Source: a virus
Direction: 5' to 3' (one strand)
DNA: 64,000 bases
IMG/VR virus record: IMGVR_UViG_3300049491_000716
Coordinates: 16,305-80,304 of that record
Shown: positions 1 through 48,116 of the stretch, one piece after another
How positions within the stretch are numbered: position 1 is the stretch's first letter
Layout: the number at the start of each line of letters is the position of its first letter
Translations under genes and position numbers: made by a program
Notes under the pieces: model-generated
What the model saw: only the letters and a program-made list of their open reading frames with translations
Database searches by the model: none
What the model was told of the DNA's origin: nothing

Positions 1-2227
1 CAAAGCGCTGGCGCAGATTGCGACGGGCTTTGATCCGCAACGACTCGGCCCCCACCTGTTCGATTTCCAGGCGGCCATCGTCGAGTGGGCTTGCAAGCGA
101 GGCCGCGCTGCGATCTTCGCTGACACCGGCCTGGGCAAGACGGCGATGCAAGCCGAATGGGCCAGACAAGTAGCGGCCCATACTGGTGGCCGCGTGCTGA
201 TCCTGGCCCCTTTGTGCGTGGCACAGCAGACTGTCGAAGAAGAGGCGCGATTCGGCACTGCGATCAAGTATTGCCGCAAAGAGGCACAGACAGAAGGCGA
301 GATCATCATCACGAATTACGAGATGGCGGACCACTTTGACGTAGCCGACTATGCCGGCGTGGTGCTGGATGAGTCTTCGATCCTGAAGAGCCACGACAGC
401 AAGACGCGGGCGCGCATCATAAGCATGTTCGACAAGACGCCGTACCGGTTGAGTTGCACCGCGACCCCAAGCCCGAACGATCACATGGAGCTTGGCAACC
501 AGGCCGAGTTCCTGGGCGTGATGACGGCCGTTGAAACGCTGGCGATGTTCTTTGTTCACGACGGCGGAGACACCGCAAGCTGGCGCCTGAAAGGCCACGG
601 CAAGCAGCGCTTTTGGGAGTGGATGAGGACATGGGCTGTGTGCGTGCGCAACCCGTCGGACCTTGGCTTTGATGGATCGCGCTACATCCTGCCGGGCCTG
701 CAAATGCACGAGCACACAATCGATGTGCAAGAGCCGCTGCCGGGGCAGTTGTTTGCTGGCATTGCGCAGACGCTGACCGAGCGCCGCGACGCAAAGCGGC
801 AGTCGTTGGGCGAACGTGTTTGCATTGCCGCCGATCTGGTCAACAGCCACACGCGGCCAGCCATTGTGTGGTGCCACCTGAACGACGAAAGCAAGGCGTT
901 GGCGCAGGCCATCCCCGATGCCATCGAAGTCACCGGTTCCATGACGGCCGACGAGAAAGAGGCCGCAATCATGGCCTTCACGCATGGCGAGAAGCGAGTG
1001 ATCGTCACAAAGCCAAGTATCGCTGGATTCGGCATGAATTGGCAGCACTGCGCCGATATGGTTTTTGCTGGTCTTGATGACTCGTTCGAGAGCTTTTACC
1101 AGGCGGTGCGGCGCTGCTATCGCTTCGGCCAGAAAGACGTGGTGAACGTGCATCTGGTGTCGTCAAGTGCCGAGGGCGCAGTGAAGGAAAACCTGCAGCG
1201 CAAGCAAGCCCAGGCTACTGACATGGCCGAGAGCATGGTGGCGTACATGCGAGAACTCACGAAACAAACGATCAAGGGTGCGACGATGGAAAAGAGCGAC
1301 TACGTGCGAGAAGTAGCCGAGGGCAAGGGCTGGACGATTCACCTTGGCGATTGCGTCGAAGTGGCAAGCGAACTGCCTGACAACAGCATCGACTTCTCAG
1401 TGTTCAGCCCGCCGTTTGCCAGCCTATACACCTACAGCAACAGCGATCGCGACATGGGTAACTGCAAGAGCTACAGCGAGTTTTACGATCACTTCCGGTT
1501 CCTCGTTGCGCAACTGTACCGCGTCACCAAGCCTGGCCGGCTGCTGAGCTTCCATTGCATGAATCTGCAAACCAGCAAGTTCCGCGACGGCGTGATCGGC
1601 CTGCACGACTTCCGTGGCGAACTCACGCGCATGTTTGTCGCGGCCGGCTGGGTCTTCCATTCCGAGGTTTGCATCTGGAAAGACCCCGTGACCGCGATGC
1701 AGCGCACCAAGGCCCTGGGCCTACTGCACAAGACCATCCGCAAGGATTCGAGCATGAGCCGGCAGGGCATCCCTGATTATCTGGTGACGATGCGCAAGCC
1801 TGGCGAGAATGCCGAGCGCATCAGCCACACTCACGAGAATTTCCCTGTCGAAAAGTGGCAGCGTTACGCCAGCCCGGTCTGGATGGACGTGAACCCGACT
1901 CGCACGCTTCAATTTCGCAACGCCCGCGAGACTGACGATGAGCGCCACATCTGCCCGCTCCAGCTTGACGTGATCGAGCGAGCTATGGAGTTGTGGAGCA
2001 ACCCGGGCGACTTGGTTTTTAGCCCGTTTACGGGCATCGGCAGCGAGGGCTATGTGAGCATCGAAATGGGCCGGCGCTTTGTTGGCGCGGAACTCAAGCG
2101 GAGCTACTTCGACTTGGCAAAACGCAATCTGACTGATGCCCGCAAGACTCAGGTCGAAGGGCTGTTCGCTGACGATTACGAGGATGCATTTGCAGAAGAT
2201 GGCGAGCCACAGGCGGCGGAACTGTGA
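1..2227 (+). CDS. SNF2-like helicase fused to an N4/N6 DNA methyltransferase (5' end outside window)
   Basis: Frame is open from position 2 with Walker A ADTGLGKT, then LDESS, TAT and QAVRRCYRFGQ; C-terminal SPPF motif IV precedes FSPFTGIGS motif I (beta-class order). Confidence 0.9.
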   Translation, partial: KALAQIATGFDPQRLGPHLFDFQAAIVEWACKRGRAAIFADTGLGKTAMQAEWARQVAAHTGGRVLILAPLCVAQQTVEEEARFGTAIKYCRKEAQTEGEIIITNYEMADHFDVADYAGVVLDESSILKSHDSKTRARIISMFDKTPYRLSCTATPSPNDHMELGNQAEFLGVMTAVETLAMFFVHDGGDTASWRLKGHGKQRFWEWMRTWAVCVRNPSDLGFDGSRYILPGLQMHEHTIDVQEPLPGQLFAGIAQTLTERRDAKRQSLGERVCIAADLVNSHTRPAIVWCHLNDESKALAQAIPDAIEVTGSMTADEKEAAIMAFTHGEKRVIVTKPSIAGFGMNWQHCADMVFAGLDDSFESFYQAVRRCYRFGQKDVVNVHLVSSSAEGAVKENLQRKQAQATDMAESMVAYMRELTKQTIKGATMEKSDYVREVAEGKGWTIHLGDCVEVASELPDNSIDFSVFSPPFASLYTYSNSDRDMGNCKSYSEFYDHFRFLVAQLYRVTKPGRLLSFHCMNLQTSKFRDGVIGLHDFRGELTRMFVAAGWVFHSEVCIWKDPVTAMQRTKALGLLHKTIRKDSSMSRQGIPDYLVTMRKPGENAERISHTHENFPVEKWQRYASPVWMDVNPTRTLQFRNARETDDERHICPLQLDVIERAMELWSNPGDLVFSPFTGIGSEGYVSIEMGRRFVGAELKRSYFDLAKRNLTDARKTQVEGLFADDYEDAFAEDGEPQAAEL

Positions 2228-2228
2228 T

Positions 2229-2286
2229 GCACAACGTTTGAATTCACCTGCCGCCGGAGGCGGTCAGGTGGAATGAAGGGTTATGC
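2229..2286 (-). other. Integron attC site (58 bp)
   Basis: Minus strand reads R'' GCATAAC, 5-nt spacer, L'' ATTCCACC, stem-loop, L' GGTGAAT, 6-nt spacer, R' GTTGTGC; extrahelical G and T fall on the + (bottom) strand. Confidence 0.8.
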
Positions 2287-2316
2287 GTCTGATTCAACAA
2301 CGAAGGAATTTGAAGC

Positions 2317-2571
2317 ATGAGACAAAGCCTGTTGGTAGCCGCGCTTGAATATGAGGAAGGCGGACAAACTCTGTGGTTTCATGCGCCTGATGGAACGACG
2401 CTGCTGCGCCTAAAAGTCGATGGAGCTATCACGACACAAACATGCGAGACAAGCCCTGTCGCGCATGCCGATGGATGGGTGAAGGGGAACTTGGTTTTTT
2501 GCGTTCCGGAGAACAAGACGCATAACGTCGGCGATGAGCGGACCGCGAAGGCGCCGCCTACCGACGAGTGA
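2317..2571 (+). CDS. Hypothetical protein in an integron cassette (ORF inverted relative to attC)
   Basis: 84-aa ORF with GAAGGA RBS lying between two attC sites and reading into attC-2. Confidence 0.65.
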   Translation: MRQSLLVAALEYEEGGQTLWFHAPDGTTLLRLKVDGAITTQTCETSPVAHADGWVKGNLVFCVPENKTHNVGDERTAKAPPTDE

Positions 2572-2621
2572 AGAAGCAATGCGGCCCGCCGGAGCGGGTC
2601 CGCTCGATCAACCTGTTCGGC
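2520..2621 (-). other. Integron attC site (102 bp)
   Basis: Minus strand reads R'' GCCGAAC, AGGTT, L'' GATCGAGC, ..., L' GCTCATC, GCCGAC, R' GTTATGC, with two unpaired bases in the stem. Confidence 0.8.
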
Positions 2622-2637
2622 TAGAAGGTGCAAAGCG

Positions 2638-2826
2638 ATGGGAGCTTGCACGTCTTCAATGACTCCGCAACGAGCCAATACGTGAAGGTGTCGGGCTCGG
2701 TCGTGGTTTCTGCTGCGGATGGAGGTGGCCCGGACATGGCAACCTGACTACGCCACCAAGATGGACCGCGATACCTTGCAGCACGCAGAGGACTTCGCGG
2801 ACTGCAAGACGCCCAACGTGTTCTAG
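2638..2826 (+). pseudogene. Probable degraded cassette ORF (in-frame TGA at 2683)
   Basis: ATG after GAAGGTG; frame ends ...KTPNVF* across the core site, like ...KTHNV in the neighbouring cassette. Confidence 0.35.
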
Positions 2827-2845
2827 GCAACTCGTTAGATTGCAA
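2811..2845 (-). other. attI-like site heading the cassette array
   Basis: Minus strand ...GTTGCCTAGAACACGTTGGGC: a GTTRRRY core with no attC hairpin, resembling an attI simple site (attI1 CCCTAAAACAAAGTT). Confidence 0.45.
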
Positions 2846-3028
2846 CCAGACCCAAGAGATGTGAGGATGTGGCGCGCGTATCGCGATGGCGAGCCATGGA
2901 TCGTTGACGGCCGGCCGATGCGCGGCGGTCTTGAGATGATGTGGCGTGCGATCCAAGCCGAGATCGCAAAGCCACTTGGTCGTCGACACTGGAACTGATA
3001 ACTTTCAACCAACAGATAGGAGCACCCT

Positions 3029-4087
3029 ATGAGCAACGAACTCGAAGTCACCAAGCAAGCCATCGTCGAACAAGACACCAGTGCGGCGGGCCTGATGTTC
3101 ACGCCTGGCGCCATGCAGCAACTGGTCGCCGTTGCCGACTTCATGGCCAAGGGTCGCGCCACCGTGCCGAAGCATCTGCAGGGCAACCAAGGCGATTGCT
3201 TGGCTGTCGTGATGCAGGCCACCACGTGGCGCATGAACCCGTTCGCCGTGGCTCAGAAGACGCACCTCGTCAACGGCGTTCTCGGATACGAGGCTCAACT
3301 CGTGAACGCTGTCGTCAACACCATGGCGCCGACCAAGGACCGCATCAACTACGAGTGGTTCGGCGAGTGGACCCGCGTGATGGGCAAGTTCGAGGAACGC
3401 GAGTCAAAGAAGAAGGTCGACGAAGACACCGGCAAGCCACTGAAGTACCGCGTGCCGAATTGGAACATCAAGGACGAAGACGGTCTCGGCATCCGTGTGT
3501 GGGCCACCATGAAGGGCGAGGCCGAGCCGCGCGTTCTTGAGTTGCTGCTCGTGCAGTGCCGTGTCCGCAACTCGCCGCTGTGGGCCGACGATCCGCGCCA
3601 GCAGATTGCCTATCTTGCCGTCAAGCGCTGGACCCGCCTGCACTGCCCCGACGTGCTGCTCGGCGTATACACGCCGGATGAACTCGACGACGCGCCGGTT
3701 CCGAAGGACATGGGCGCCGCCGATGTGGTCGGAAAGCCTGTGGATCCGAAGAATCCTCCGGGCCTGAGCGATGCCGAGCTTGCGGCATGGCGCCGGGAAG
3801 CCACTAAGGGGCTGGCAGCCGCCGAGGCGCACTGGAAGGCCATGGGTCGCGAGTTGCGCATGAAGGCCACCATGGACCAGCAGGTTGAGATGCGCAGGCT
3901 TGCCGAGGAAGCCGACAAGAAACGCACGGTGGACAACGGTGCCGCCGAGACCAAGACGGCGCAGCCCGCCACCAATGCCCCGGCTGCTACCGTGGCCGCC
4001 AAGGCCGACCCAGCAACCGGTGAAGTTGATCCCGACTTCGTGGCCGCCATGGATCGCGCCGAGCAGGCGGCTGGCGCGAAGGCCTGA
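3029..4087 (+). CDS. recT: RecT-family single-strand annealing protein
   Basis: VPKHLQGNQGDCLAVVMQATTWRMNPFAVAQKTHLVNGVLGYEAQL and DPRQQIAYLAVKRWTRLHCPDVLLGVYTPDE; good RBS. Confidence 0.9.
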   Translation: MSNELEVTKQAIVEQDTSAAGLMFTPGAMQQLVAVADFMAKGRATVPKHLQGNQGDCLAVVMQATTWRMNPFAVAQKTHLVNGVLGYEAQLVNAVVNTMAPTKDRINYEWFGEWTRVMGKFEERESKKKVDEDTGKPLKYRVPNWNIKDEDGLGIRVWATMKGEAEPRVLELLLVQCRVRNSPLWADDPRQQIAYLAVKRWTRLHCPDVLLGVYTPDELDDAPVPKDMGAADVVGKPVDPKNPPGLSDAELAAWRREATKGLAAAEAHWKAMGRELRMKATMDQQVEMRRLAEEADKKRTVDNGAAETKTAQPATNAPAATVAAKADPATGEVDPDFVAAMDRAEQAAGAKA

Positions 4088-4090
4088 CCC

Positions 4091-4993
4091 TTGATCTACG
4101 TCCAGTGCGAGCAAGGCGATGCGGACTGGCACCGGGCCCGTTGCGGCCGACCGACCGCTTCGCTTTTCCACATCATGCGGGAGAGCGCCAGGAACAAGCG
4201 CGGCCCCAACGCCGGCGACTGGAGCGACACGCAGAAGAACCTCGCCTTCAAATACGCAATCGAGCGCAAGAGCGGTGAGCCGCTGGACGAAGGCTTCGAG
4301 ACTTTCTTCATGCGCCGCGGCACGGCGCTCGAGCCCGAGGCGCGCCAAGAGTACGAGAAGGAATTCGGCGTTTTCGTGACGCGCGTTGGCTTCGTGATGA
4401 CCGACGACGGCAACTTCGGCGCCAGCTTGGACGGCACGATTGACAACGACGGCAGCCAAGAAATCAAGTGCTACCTGCAGCCCATGAAGTTGCGTGCCAT
4501 TCACACGACCGGCGACATCAGCATGGTCATGGACCAGTGCCAGGGTGGCCTGTGGATCAGCGGCCGCAAGTGGATGGACTTTTGCCTGTACTGCCCGGCC
4601 CTGCGCAGCATCGGCAAGCAGTTGTGGGTGAAGCGCATCTACCGCGATGACAACTACATCGAAGCGCTCGAGGCCGACCTTTGGGCGTTCAAAAGCCTGA
4701 TTGACGAATACGACAGGATCCTGAGTCTTCCCTACGACTCGTCTGCGTTTGAAGTGCAGCCACGGGTGGTGGTCGAGAAGGCCAGCAAGCGGACAGCGAC
4801 ACCCGCGCCGATCGCGCAGCCGCCTGTCGCGCCTGTCTCGCGCTTCGCCGCCCTTTCCGCCCGCATCGCCGCCGCGCCGAGCCGCGCATCCTGCGACCTG
4901 ATCCTTGACGGCGCCAGCGACCTGGATGCCATTGAGTACGCGGCGCTGGTTGGCAAGGCGAATGAGCGGTTTCCGGCAGAACAGGCGGCCTGA
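4091..4993 (+). CDS. YqaJ/lambda-type exonuclease
   Basis: EQGDADWHRARCG, MRRGTALEPEAR, GASLDG, EIKC, QCQGGLWISGRKWMDF; follows recT. Confidence 0.9.
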   Translation: MIYVQCEQGDADWHRARCGRPTASLFHIMRESARNKRGPNAGDWSDTQKNLAFKYAIERKSGEPLDEGFETFFMRRGTALEPEARQEYEKEFGVFVTRVGFVMTDDGNFGASLDGTIDNDGSQEIKCYLQPMKLRAIHTTGDISMVMDQCQGGLWISGRKWMDFCLYCPALRSIGKQLWVKRIYRDDNYIEALEADLWAFKSLIDEYDRILSLPYDSSAFEVQPRVVVEKASKRTATPAPIAQPPVAPVSRFAALSARIAAAPSRASCDLILDGASDLDAIEYAALVGKANERFPAEQAA

Positions 4994-4995
4994 GC

Positions 4996-5289
4996 ATGCA
5001 ACGCAAGCCCGCATCCACTGCCGCCGCTAAGCGCCACATGGGCCGCGTGGCCGCGCTCGGCTGCATCTGCTGCTCCATGCTCGGCTACGGCGAGACGCCT
5101 GCGCAGGTTCATCACATCCGCGAAGGTCGCATCGCACGCAGCGACTGGCTCGTGATCCCGTGCTGCGCGAAGCATCACATCGGCGCCGCGATGTCCATCC
5201 ACATGGACAAGGAACCACTGCTGCGCGCGCTTGGCGTTTTCAGCGAGTTCGATCTGCTTGCCATCGTATTGGAAAGGATTGCGAAGTGA
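4996..5289 (+). CDS. Ref/DUF968-like small HNH protein
   Basis: GCICC...AQVHHIR...IPCCAKHH. Confidence 0.7.
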   Translation: MQRKPASTAAAKRHMGRVAALGCICCSMLGYGETPAQVHHIREGRIARSDWLVIPCCAKHHIGAAMSIHMDKEPLLRALGVFSEFDLLAIVLERIAK

Positions 5290-47006: not shown

Positions 47007-48116
47007 TCAGGCGTTGTTGATCATCTGCACGTAGGGCGCGACATGCGACGCCGACGAGCTGATCTGCGACAGCGCGATGCTTGCCGTGGTGGCGCCGGCA
47101 TTGCTGTACGAGCCCAAGCCCTGCTGCCACTGATTCGATGCGCTGTTGGCGATGCCGAACAAGCCGATCGTGTTGTTCGGCTGGCTCATGCCGATGTGGC
47201 TGTGCACGATGCGGGCCGCGCTCAAGTTCGCAGTGCCCTGCGTGGTCTGCGTCGTTGAAACGCCGTAGGCCATGAACATCAAGCCTGCCTGTCGCGAAGC
47301 CGCGAACTTCGTATCCCACATCTTCATGCCGCTCAGCGCCGTCATGTGAGTTGTGCTCACCTGCATCGTGCTGTTCGTGGCGGCGTAGCTGAAGCTCAGC
47401 GATGACGTGCCGTTGCTGACCGGGTAGGTCAGGCCGTGCGTCACGCTGATGTTGTTCGTCGTGTTCTGGCTGACGTTGATTGAGAAGCGGAAGCTCACCG
47501 AACTTGACGAGAAAGACTGCAGGCTCATCGAACTCGCGCCTGTTCCCAGACTGTACAAGACGATGTTGTGGGTTTCCTGCTGGTTGTAGCTGTACGCGCT
47601 GTTGCCGGTGGATGCGAACGACGTCGAGGCCAAGCTCACGGTGTGCGCCATGCGCATGAAGCCGGCCGAGAACTGCTCCCTGACCTGCATCGGGAACACC
47701 ACCGACGTACTCTGCTGAACGGTCTGCGATTGGCTGTTCAGCAGATACGGGACAGCGTTTGCAAAGTAGCTCAGCAGCGGTTGGTAGATGCTGATCGTGT
47801 TGCCGGCCGTGCTGACGGCAATGCCGGATGCGCCGACCAGCGATGAGCTGGCAAGTGCCGACACAATCATGGTTTGATCGGTGGCCGACAACGTGACGTT
47901 GTTGCCGGCTTGGTAGACGAGGTTCGTGCCGCTCAGCGTGCTGGCACCAGCGGTGTTGCCGCTGATCGTCATGAACTGGTTGTGCGCGCTGTTCCAGTCA
48001 CTCGGACGGACCAGCGCGGTAGCCAACGTGGTCGTGGTGGCGCCGAGACTGTTGAAGACCGTGACGGTTCCCGTGAAGTCGGCAACTGAGTTGGACTTGA
48101 CGTGGGAGACTGCCAT
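47007..48116 (-). CDS. Ser/Thr-rich structural (fiber-like) protein
   Basis: LVRPSDWNSAH motif; very high S/T/N content, few charged residues. Confidence 0.7.
   Translation of the reverse strand: MAVSHVKSNSVADFTGTVTVFNSLGATTTTLATALVRPSDWNSAHNQFMTISGNTAGASTLSGTNLVYQAGNNVTLSATDQTMIVSALASSSLVGASGIAVSTAGNTISIYQPLLSYFANAVPYLLNSQSQTVQQSTSVVFPMQVREQFSAGFMRMAHTVSLASTSFASTGNSAYSYNQQETHNIVLYSLGTGASSMSLQSFSSSSVSFRFSINVSQNTTNNISVTHGLTYPVSNGTSSLSFSYAATNSTMQVSTTHMTALSGMKMWDTKFAASRQAGLMFMAYGVSTTQTTQGTANLSAARIVHSHIGMSQPNNTIGLFGIANSASNQWQQGLGSYSNAGATTASIALSQISSSASHVAPYVQMINNA

Follow-up and report, generated by a model that had tools for sequence, protein, structure and literature searches.

A probable integrase-less attC cluster with reversed cassettes in the early region of an uncultured freshwater-sediment phage

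Most of what is known of integrons concerns bacteria, in which they gather resistance and defence genes. In a once-circular cassette the R'' box complements the first bases of the same cassette, which in an array serve as the R' box of the attC site before it. Groups of at least two attC sites that lie close together (within 4 kb in IntegronFinder) and have no integron integrase nearby are termed CALINs. A different kind of modular exchange has been proposed for T4-type phages, in which the short stem-loops of PeSL cassettes stand at the boundaries of small early genes and would allow these genes to be shuffled between phages; PeSLs are promoter-plus-stem-loop repeats that depend on homologous recombination and are not attCs cut by a tyrosine recombinase. 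Clusters of attC sites in phages are already known (Qi et al. 2023, PMC9892861). In that paper the phage CALINs comprise at least two attCs within a few kb, lack intI, and carry small cassettes, with an N6_N4 methyltransferase among the cargo, and all of these features recur in the locus described here; the paper also reports that IntI1 recombined five of the six attCs tested from virulent phages. Unlike those CALINs, the present locus has its genes on the bottom strand of the attCs, some start codons of this type of array fall within an attC, and the layout recurs across metagenomic phages and is known from sequence alone. Canonical cassettes (aadA1 and those of the Thauera, Dechloromonas, and Methyloversatilis integrons) follow the same grammar as the sites reported here, with AAC/GTT cores and a bulged G16, and canonical arrays show the same complementarity between each R' box and the next R'' box; the sites here measure 58-102 nt. 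In contrast to canonical integrons, no intI was found, the ORFs occupy the opposite strand, and the cargo consists of phage early genes. Insertion of cassettes is possible outside att sites as well (Loot et al., 10.1101/2022.09.11.507474), and this attG insertion, which gives rise to SALINs, offers a route by which cassettes enter integron-free genomes and form small integrase-less clusters; that report describes the process for bacterial chromosomes, whereas no insertion target site could be defined at the present locus. Within the literature searched, some of it accessible in excerpt, we found no published account of systematic reversed polarity, or of start codons within attCs, in phage arrays.

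The stretch of DNA that was analysed, hereafter the window, has a length of 64,000 nt and corresponds to bases 16305-80304 of the 80,304-bp IMG/VR virus record IMGVR_UViG_3300049491_000716, for which the completeness rating is 68%. Positions are those of the window except where genome positions, meaning those of the full record, are specified. A search of public sequencing runs found the region in one DNA run only, a freshwater-sediment metagenome that is probably the source sample, and listed no RNA runs that hold it. The attC sites are situated in the phage early region, where the ORF list and Pfam matches place all of the early genes on the plus strand. These begin with a SNF2-type helicase fused to an N6/N4 DNA methyltransferase (2..2227; PF01555, PF00271, and PF00176), continue with small ORFs, and proceed to RecT (3029-4087), a YqaJ-type exonuclease (4091-4993), and a RecA-dependent nuclease (4996-5289). 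GenBank phages yielded distant matches only, to the methyltransferase and RecT genes. An Rfam scan of the whole window returned zero family matches, and a promoter and terminator consensus scan of positions 1800-3300 revealed no promoter, and no terminator at the sites. The helicase-methyltransferase gene (window -31 to 2184 in the alignments) shares 73-80% nucleotide identity with many phage contigs whose flanks are wholly different, and among its closest relatives (at most 90% amino acid identity) the gene itself is the sole common part. As judged from these alignments, the gene behaves as a self-contained mosaic module.

A preliminary description of the window, made from its letters, had pointed to two sites of attC architecture on the minus strand, and the grammar of both was confirmed. 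Site 1 (2229-2286, minus strand, 58 nt) is intact and reads GCATAAC-CCTTC-ATTCCACC-(18 nt)-GGTGAAT-TCAAAC-GTTGTGC; site 2 (2520-2621, minus strand, 102 nt) reads GCCGAAC-AGGTT-GATCGAGC-(62 nt)-GCTCATC-GCCGAC-GTTATGC. Both have the form R''(7)-5-L''(8)...L'(7)-6-R'(7). A third intact site, termed site U, was located 1.5 kb upstream of the window (genome 14660-14759, minus strand), with the boxes R'' CTCTAAC and R' GTTAGGC. The AAC and GTT triplets are exact in all three sites, several boxes having one departure from the R/Y consensus (RYYYAAC / GTTRRRY); the L'' and L' boxes pair at 7/7 positions in both window sites and at 6/7 in site U, and the spacers are 5 and 6 nt long throughout. In sites 1 and 2 the 8-nt L'' box possesses one C more than the 7-nt L' box, which corresponds to a bulged G16 on the bottom (plus) strand, where position 16 is counted from the 3' end. 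Site 1 has a bulged T23 as well, and a 6-bp stem (CAGGTG) separates the two extrahelical bases, as in the G16/T23 rule given by Nivina et al. 2016 (PMC5027507). The layout of site 1 (7-5-8 / 7-6-7, with bulged G16 and T23) is that of the aadA1 attC of In2/Tn21 from plasmid R100, position for position (GTCTAAC-AATTC-GTTCAAGC-CGACGCC...GGCGCG-GCTTAAC-TCAAGC-GTTAGAT), and it has exactly the L'' box, L' box, and 3' spacer of a Thauera chromosomal attC (L126:3985-4053). Nivina et al. also state that the extrahelical bases share an arm with AAC in the attC top strand, and this establishes the minus strand as the attC top strand here. In site 2 the R and L boxes and the bulged G16 are intact, the T corresponding to the second extrahelical base is paired, and the long central part has lost its symmetry; the second extrahelical base is thus missing from site 2, and probably from site U.

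Folding calculations separated site 1 from the other two sites. The minimum-energy fold of site 1 is the attC fold (-14.8 kcal/mol for the bottom strand and -13.8 kcal/mol for the top strand; fold z = -4.6). In site 2 the attC fold is 5.2 kcal/mol less favourable than the minimum-energy fold, and in site U 4.2 kcal/mol less favourable, compared with a gap of at most 0.6 kcal/mol in 11 of 16 real long attCs, and these predicted energies place sites 2 and U in the poorer-folding tail of real attCs. The inner hairpin of site 2 (GGACCCGC..GCGGGCC) resembles the inner hairpins of real attCs and that of site U.

The sites were compared with chance expectation, which they exceed, by use of a strict scanner, which demands exact AAC and GTT, L boxes paired at 7/7 with one bulge, and at least 2/4 pairs in the outer R box. 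When applied to both strands of the whole 80-kb record, the scanner returned two matches, sites 1 and 2, and in 916 kb from 80 RecT-related phage loci it returned six. It picked out the R100 aadA1 attC on the right strand, and of its matches upstream of 80 bacterial intI1-like genes, 58 had the expected strand and 1 the opposite one. A covariance model, R1, was also built from 33 real bacterial attCs located beside intI (57-72 nt, 20 base pairs, no phage site). These attCs, chosen by a scanner with the same grammar, represent class 1 integrons as well as the IntI1-like integrons on the chromosomes of Thauera, Dechloromonas, Methyloversatilis, and other bacteria. With filters off, R1 found three matches with E<1 in the whole record, all on the minus strand, namely site 1 (54.9 bits, E=1.8e-11), site U (46.1 bits), and site 2 (41.8 bits, E=3.8e-8), R1 E-values being rough; the next-best match had 12 bits. 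A covariance-model search had been suggested in the preliminary description as a check on its two sites, and our own model bore out both (E of roughly 1e-11 and 4e-8). No R1 match at E<=10 was obtained in the 916 kb of control DNA from the 80 RecT-related phage loci. In 17 bacterial integron loci the model gave 50 matches of 24-77 bits, many of them not in the training set, and 49/50 were on the expected strand; by this model the phage sites have mid-range scores among real attCs. The sites are attCs by sequence and structure. A palindrome at 47154-47181 (GCCGAAC...GTTCGGC) scored 11.6 bits (E=1.7) on both strands, which is chance level.

The ends of the units bear on how they were assembled. 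The R' box of site 2 (GTTATGC) complements the R'' box of site 1 (GCATAAC) at 7/7 positions, and extension yields an exact 11-bp inverted repeat, GTTATGCGTCT at 2280-2290 and AGACGCATAAC at 2516-2526, or 16 nt at 88% identity; the 11-bp complement of the cassette ends, which the preliminary description had called expected of a once-circular cassette, is thus present exactly. The match between a site's own R'' and R' boxes is 6/7 in site 1 and 5/7 in site 2. Cassette B, the 291-nt unit delimited in this way (2235..2525, minus strand), extends from AA|C of site 1 to AA|C of site 2 and comprises site 1 and the body of a reading frame, ORF84. On its other side, site 1 has an R' box (GTTGTGC, extended to 13 bp) that complements a half attC situated shortly before the window (genome 16141-16177), of which the R''-L'' arm only is present, with ~75% identity to the corresponding arm (L''-R'') of site 1. 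The exact 13-bp inverted repeat in question consists of GTTGTGCATCACA at genome 16165-16177 and the complementary copy at window 2223-2235. Site 1 and this half attC (genome 16141-16171) would bound a putative reversed cassette of 2.4 kb that has the helicase-methyltransferase gene as cargo. Across the subject and related phages, the R' box complemented the R'' box of the next site at 7/7 bases in all 8/8 adjacent junctions (3/3 in contig L220, 1/1 in L233, 1/1 in L167, 2/2 in L245, and the site 2-site 1 junction of the subject), and the match between own R'' and R' boxes in these sites was mostly 4-6/7, with one site at 7/7. The sequences of these junctions indicate that recombination at the G|TT core linked the units, in the manner in which IntI joins once-circular cassettes. 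As a separate matter, AGACGCATAAC was considered as a dispersed operator and rejected; with up to 2 mismatches it had 7 matches against 11 expected, and it is no genome-wide motif.

The content of the units in the window is less clear-cut than their ends. ORF84 (2317..2571, plus strand, which is the attC bottom strand) crosses the crossover of site 2 (CAT AAC GTC), and its last 15 codons and stop come from within that site; in the circular cassette it would end in ...THNV, by way of the TGA in the cassette's own first bases. No homologues of ORF84 were found among 5.8 billion clustered proteins, it had no Pfam or PHROG match, and its GC3 is 0.59 versus 0.75-0.80 in the neighbouring genes. This orphan frame of low GC3 may be no gene. 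The body of cassette C (2622..2816, minus strand) contains three short overlapping frames and no clean single frame, the ORFs at 2534-2662, 2628-2747, and 2719-2826 each occupying a different frame, and from this arrangement we read cassette C as chimeric or decayed. The preliminary description had the ORFs ending in HNV and PNV across the core site, a claim that stood in part. The ORF at 2719-2826 does end in ...TPNVF and a stop, whereas ORF84 runs on for 15 codons to 2571, and an HNV end is found merely in a 4-codon mini-ORF (MHNV and a stop, 2227-2241).

Within cassette C, the segment 2720-2819 alone has a relative. By blastn its plus strand is identical at 98/100 positions to the 3' end of an intact gene in phage contig L245, with unrelated flanks; L245 is the one other viral contig matched by a pattern that represents the third unit's end. 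The shared stretch ends at ...CCCAACGT, at most 3 nt from the predicted AA|C crossover (core AACGT), and in L245, which has three attCs in total, an intact attC (41.1 bits) directly follows the shared stretch. In the source run, 2720-2819 forms a separate 100-nt contig with a depth of 117 versus ~26 in its flanks, and two other continuations are found after 2819/2820, one of which matches the L245 attC arm. One and the same cassette end thus has different partners at the core site, and the 4-5x flank depth together with the alternative neighbours shows that other, more abundant genomes in the sediment carry this cassette end. Extra depth was also observed at window 2209-2241, where a contig of the source run agrees with the record from the last part of the helicase-methyltransferase gene as far as ...AACGTTTGA and departs from it thereafter (CATGAGCCGAAAACCCGGCTC); in a relative, this core would seem to be followed by another site or neighbour. 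Comparison of related phages, another check named in the preliminary description, gave a homology breakpoint at the core site with L245 and no whole-cassette presence/absence polymorphism, no close relative sharing the flanks.

The third unit ends at a site that the model does not score. The minus strand of 2811-2840 reads ATCTAAC-GAGTT-GCCTA-GAACAC-GTTGGGC, in which the R'' and R' boxes are kept with their spacers and the L boxes and hairpin are gone. At the equivalent junction, contig L245 has a full attC with the identical R' box GTTGGGC. Replication slippage can delete folded attC hairpins, according to 10.1101/2022.09.11.507474, and 2811-2840 is probably an attC after loss of its hairpin. 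A comparable arrangement of R''-5-6-R' with neither L boxes nor hairpin, ATCCAAC-CGACG-TCAGGC-GTTGGGT, occurs on the plus strand at genome 3908-3932 (12.3 bits, E=1.2) and could be another collapsed attC or a chance match.

Further sites lie upstream of the window. Site U is placed between convergent genes, and the TAA stop of a 64-aa HTH-like ORF (genome 14754-14948, minus strand) falls within its R'' box, CTCTAAC; this ORF has canonical cassette polarity and is the sole exception among the units. No partner R' box (GTTAGAG) for the R'' box of site U was present within 1.5 kb. A degenerate attC (genome 14220-14302, minus strand, R1 10 bits) retains a good L'-spacer-R' arm (GGTTAGC-TCAACC-GTTAGGC) together with a perfect inner hairpin, but its L'' arm is gone; a bottom-strand gene between it and site U matches phrog_5086 (2e-20). 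With one collapsed, one half, and one degenerate site and a chimeric cassette C, the array looks partly fossil, and on these sequence features mobility today is likely to be confined to site 1 in this phage.

The reversed polarity noted in the preliminary description, with ORFs running against the cassettes and along with the phage early genes, was upheld at this locus, where the ORFs are on the plus strand, and it extends to other phages. We collected 80 phage loci in which a helicase-methyltransferase homologue occurs and turned each so that this gene read along the plus strand; R1 gave 15 attC matches in 7 of these loci, every one on the minus strand, opposite to the gene. Polarity was then counted as the strand of the longest ORF in each interval between adjacent attCs. 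In bacterial arrays the longest ORF was on the top strand in 27/27 intervals and on the bottom strand in 0/27, versus 2/10 top and 8/10 bottom in phage arrays. The reversed layout recurs in at least 8 phage contigs, with different cassettes and always opposite to the early genes. The 80 RecT-related viral loci, by contrast, all differ from the subject upstream of RecT and gave no attC matches. The bottom-strand ORFs of the phage arrays include a Lar-like restriction-alleviation protein (PF14354, phrog_599), whose start lies within an attC, and others that match phrog_13613 (1e-22) and phrog_30366; these family assignments identify the cargo in relatives as ordinary phage early genes, such as the predicted Lar-like restriction-alleviation gene. 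In long phage attCs the asymmetric central part bears the translation start signals of the following gene, both ribosome-binding site and start codon. Individual cases in which the start and Shine-Dalgarno sequence of the next bottom-strand gene fall within the attC centre are L198:1031-1105 and L198:1073-1261, L167:7312-7424, and L245:835-928. Such placement means that site and gene share sequence.

A search for tyrosine recombinases of family PF00589 gave no match at E<=1 in the 80-kb record, in keeping with the earlier remark that no integrase was in view. Five related records likewise had no match that passed the family cut-off; one of the five, which has attC matches, is rated 100% complete. 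Sites 1 and 2 are 233 nt apart with no PF00589 match in the record, which is the arrangement of a CALIN. A complete integron would have an intI gene with attI and a Pc promoter beside the array; no tyrosine recombinase was detected in the record, although with a completeness of 68% an integrase could lie in the missing part. The ORFs are on the bottom strand, whereas a canonical cassette has a promoterless top-strand ORF with the attC at its 3' end. We consider it about 70% probable that the locus is a CALIN in the early operon of an uncultured freshwater-sediment phage, assembled by IntI-type recombination from reversed cassettes and requiring a host integrase for movement.

Other origins of these sites were weighed against this reading. 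GC-rich hairpins with no relation to integrons, such as terminators, RNA processing sites, or protein-binding palindromes, might come to look like attCs by chance or convergence. The positions at gene boundaries, with site U between convergent genes, would suit this explanation, as would the view, expressed in PMC9892861, that attCs act as weak terminators. However, a T-run is missing after every one of the hairpins, where the terminator scan was empty as well; the L box sequences differ, yet the pairing, the bulge position, and the 5/6-nt spacers are constant; the scores of 42-55 bits are mid-range for real attCs, with 0 matches in 916 kb of control phage DNA; and the complementarity between R' and the next R'' would be left without explanation. 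We therefore regard chance or convergent hairpins as highly improbable. A less remote idea, which we nevertheless judge unlikely, is that a piece of a bacterial integron array was captured in one illegitimate recombination and is now inert, the plus strand ORFs being unrelated to the cassettes. Signs of decay are indeed at hand in the collapsed site, the half site, the chimeric cassette C, and the poor folding of sites 2 and U; ORF84 is an orphan, and there is a likeness between the attCs and those of chromosomal integrons of the Thauera and Dechloromonas type. Against such a capture stand the strand of the cargo, opposite to that of all bacterial cassettes examined (27/27 top strand), the membership of the cargo in relatives in phage protein families, and the occurrence of the reversed layout with different cassettes in at least 8 phage contigs. 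En-bloc capture would, moreover, have brought top-strand bacterial ORFs, and none was seen.

The sites might also be genuine attC-type sites that are moved by a recombinase of the phage lineage, encoded in the unsequenced third of the genome or belonging to an unrecognised family, and not by host IntI. The 68% completeness of the record leaves room for such an enzyme, but the 80 kb gave no match to PF00589 at E<=1, and the related record rated 100% complete has attCs and no tyrosine recombinase above the cut-off; we think this explanation improbable too. In the favoured reading, that of a phage CALIN of IntI-type assembly, a host integron integrase, SOS-induced during infection, would fold and cut the bottom strands of the attCs, and the excised cassettes would then be inserted at other attCs or at secondary sites in phage genomes. 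The phage would in this way swap small early genes, and the cassette genes would be expressed by read-through from the phage early promoter and not from the integron Pc. Borrowing of a host IntI in trans, with transcription from the phage's own promoter, had been proposed in the preliminary description, and the analysis supports that interpretation as regards the nature of the sites, the signature of their assembly, the reversed strand of the genes, and the lack of a tyrosine recombinase in the record.

A broader proposal, which we advance tentatively and hold to be possible though open to considerable doubt, is that phages maintain their own pool of reverse-polarity cassettes, exchanged through the host's SOS-induced IntI and mutually silent with those of bacteria. 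The small early genes on the bottom strand, some of them anti-restriction genes, would be read only from the phage early promoter and would be silent in a bacterial integron; the top-strand cassettes of bacteria, many of which carry anti-phage defences, would be silent in the phage; and co-infecting phages would exchange cassettes by means of the SOS-induced IntI of the host. Within this proposal the layout may itself favour recombination, because the recombinogenic bottom strand would be the displaced non-template strand of a heavily transcribed operon. If such a mirror-image, host-integrase-dependent pool exists, integrons would be a gene-exchange platform for viruses too, and the reversed polarity would explain how phage and bacterium avoid expressing each other's cargo. 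The arrays also bear on the origin of new cassettes, in that ordinary phage genes are here bracketed by attCs. Site 1 and cassette B are directly testable substrates.

The position of the crossover within reading frames was examined in the phage arrays. The AAC triplet served as an in-frame Asn codon across the crossover in 9/20 sites, against one third expected in this crude test, and did so in all five of the longest crossing ORFs and in 5/7 sites with at least 60 open upstream codons. A frame preference at the crossover AAC is suggestive only, the counts being not demonstrably above chance overall. In many attCs, from loci L084-L163 and from phages, the conserved L'-R' spacer has the form TCAxxC, so that the bottom strand reads AAC-Gxx-TGA and has a stop two codons past an in-frame AAC. 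Reversed phage ORFs that end in ...N-A/V and a stop at the L'-R' spacer were noted in L220, L233, L167, and L198.
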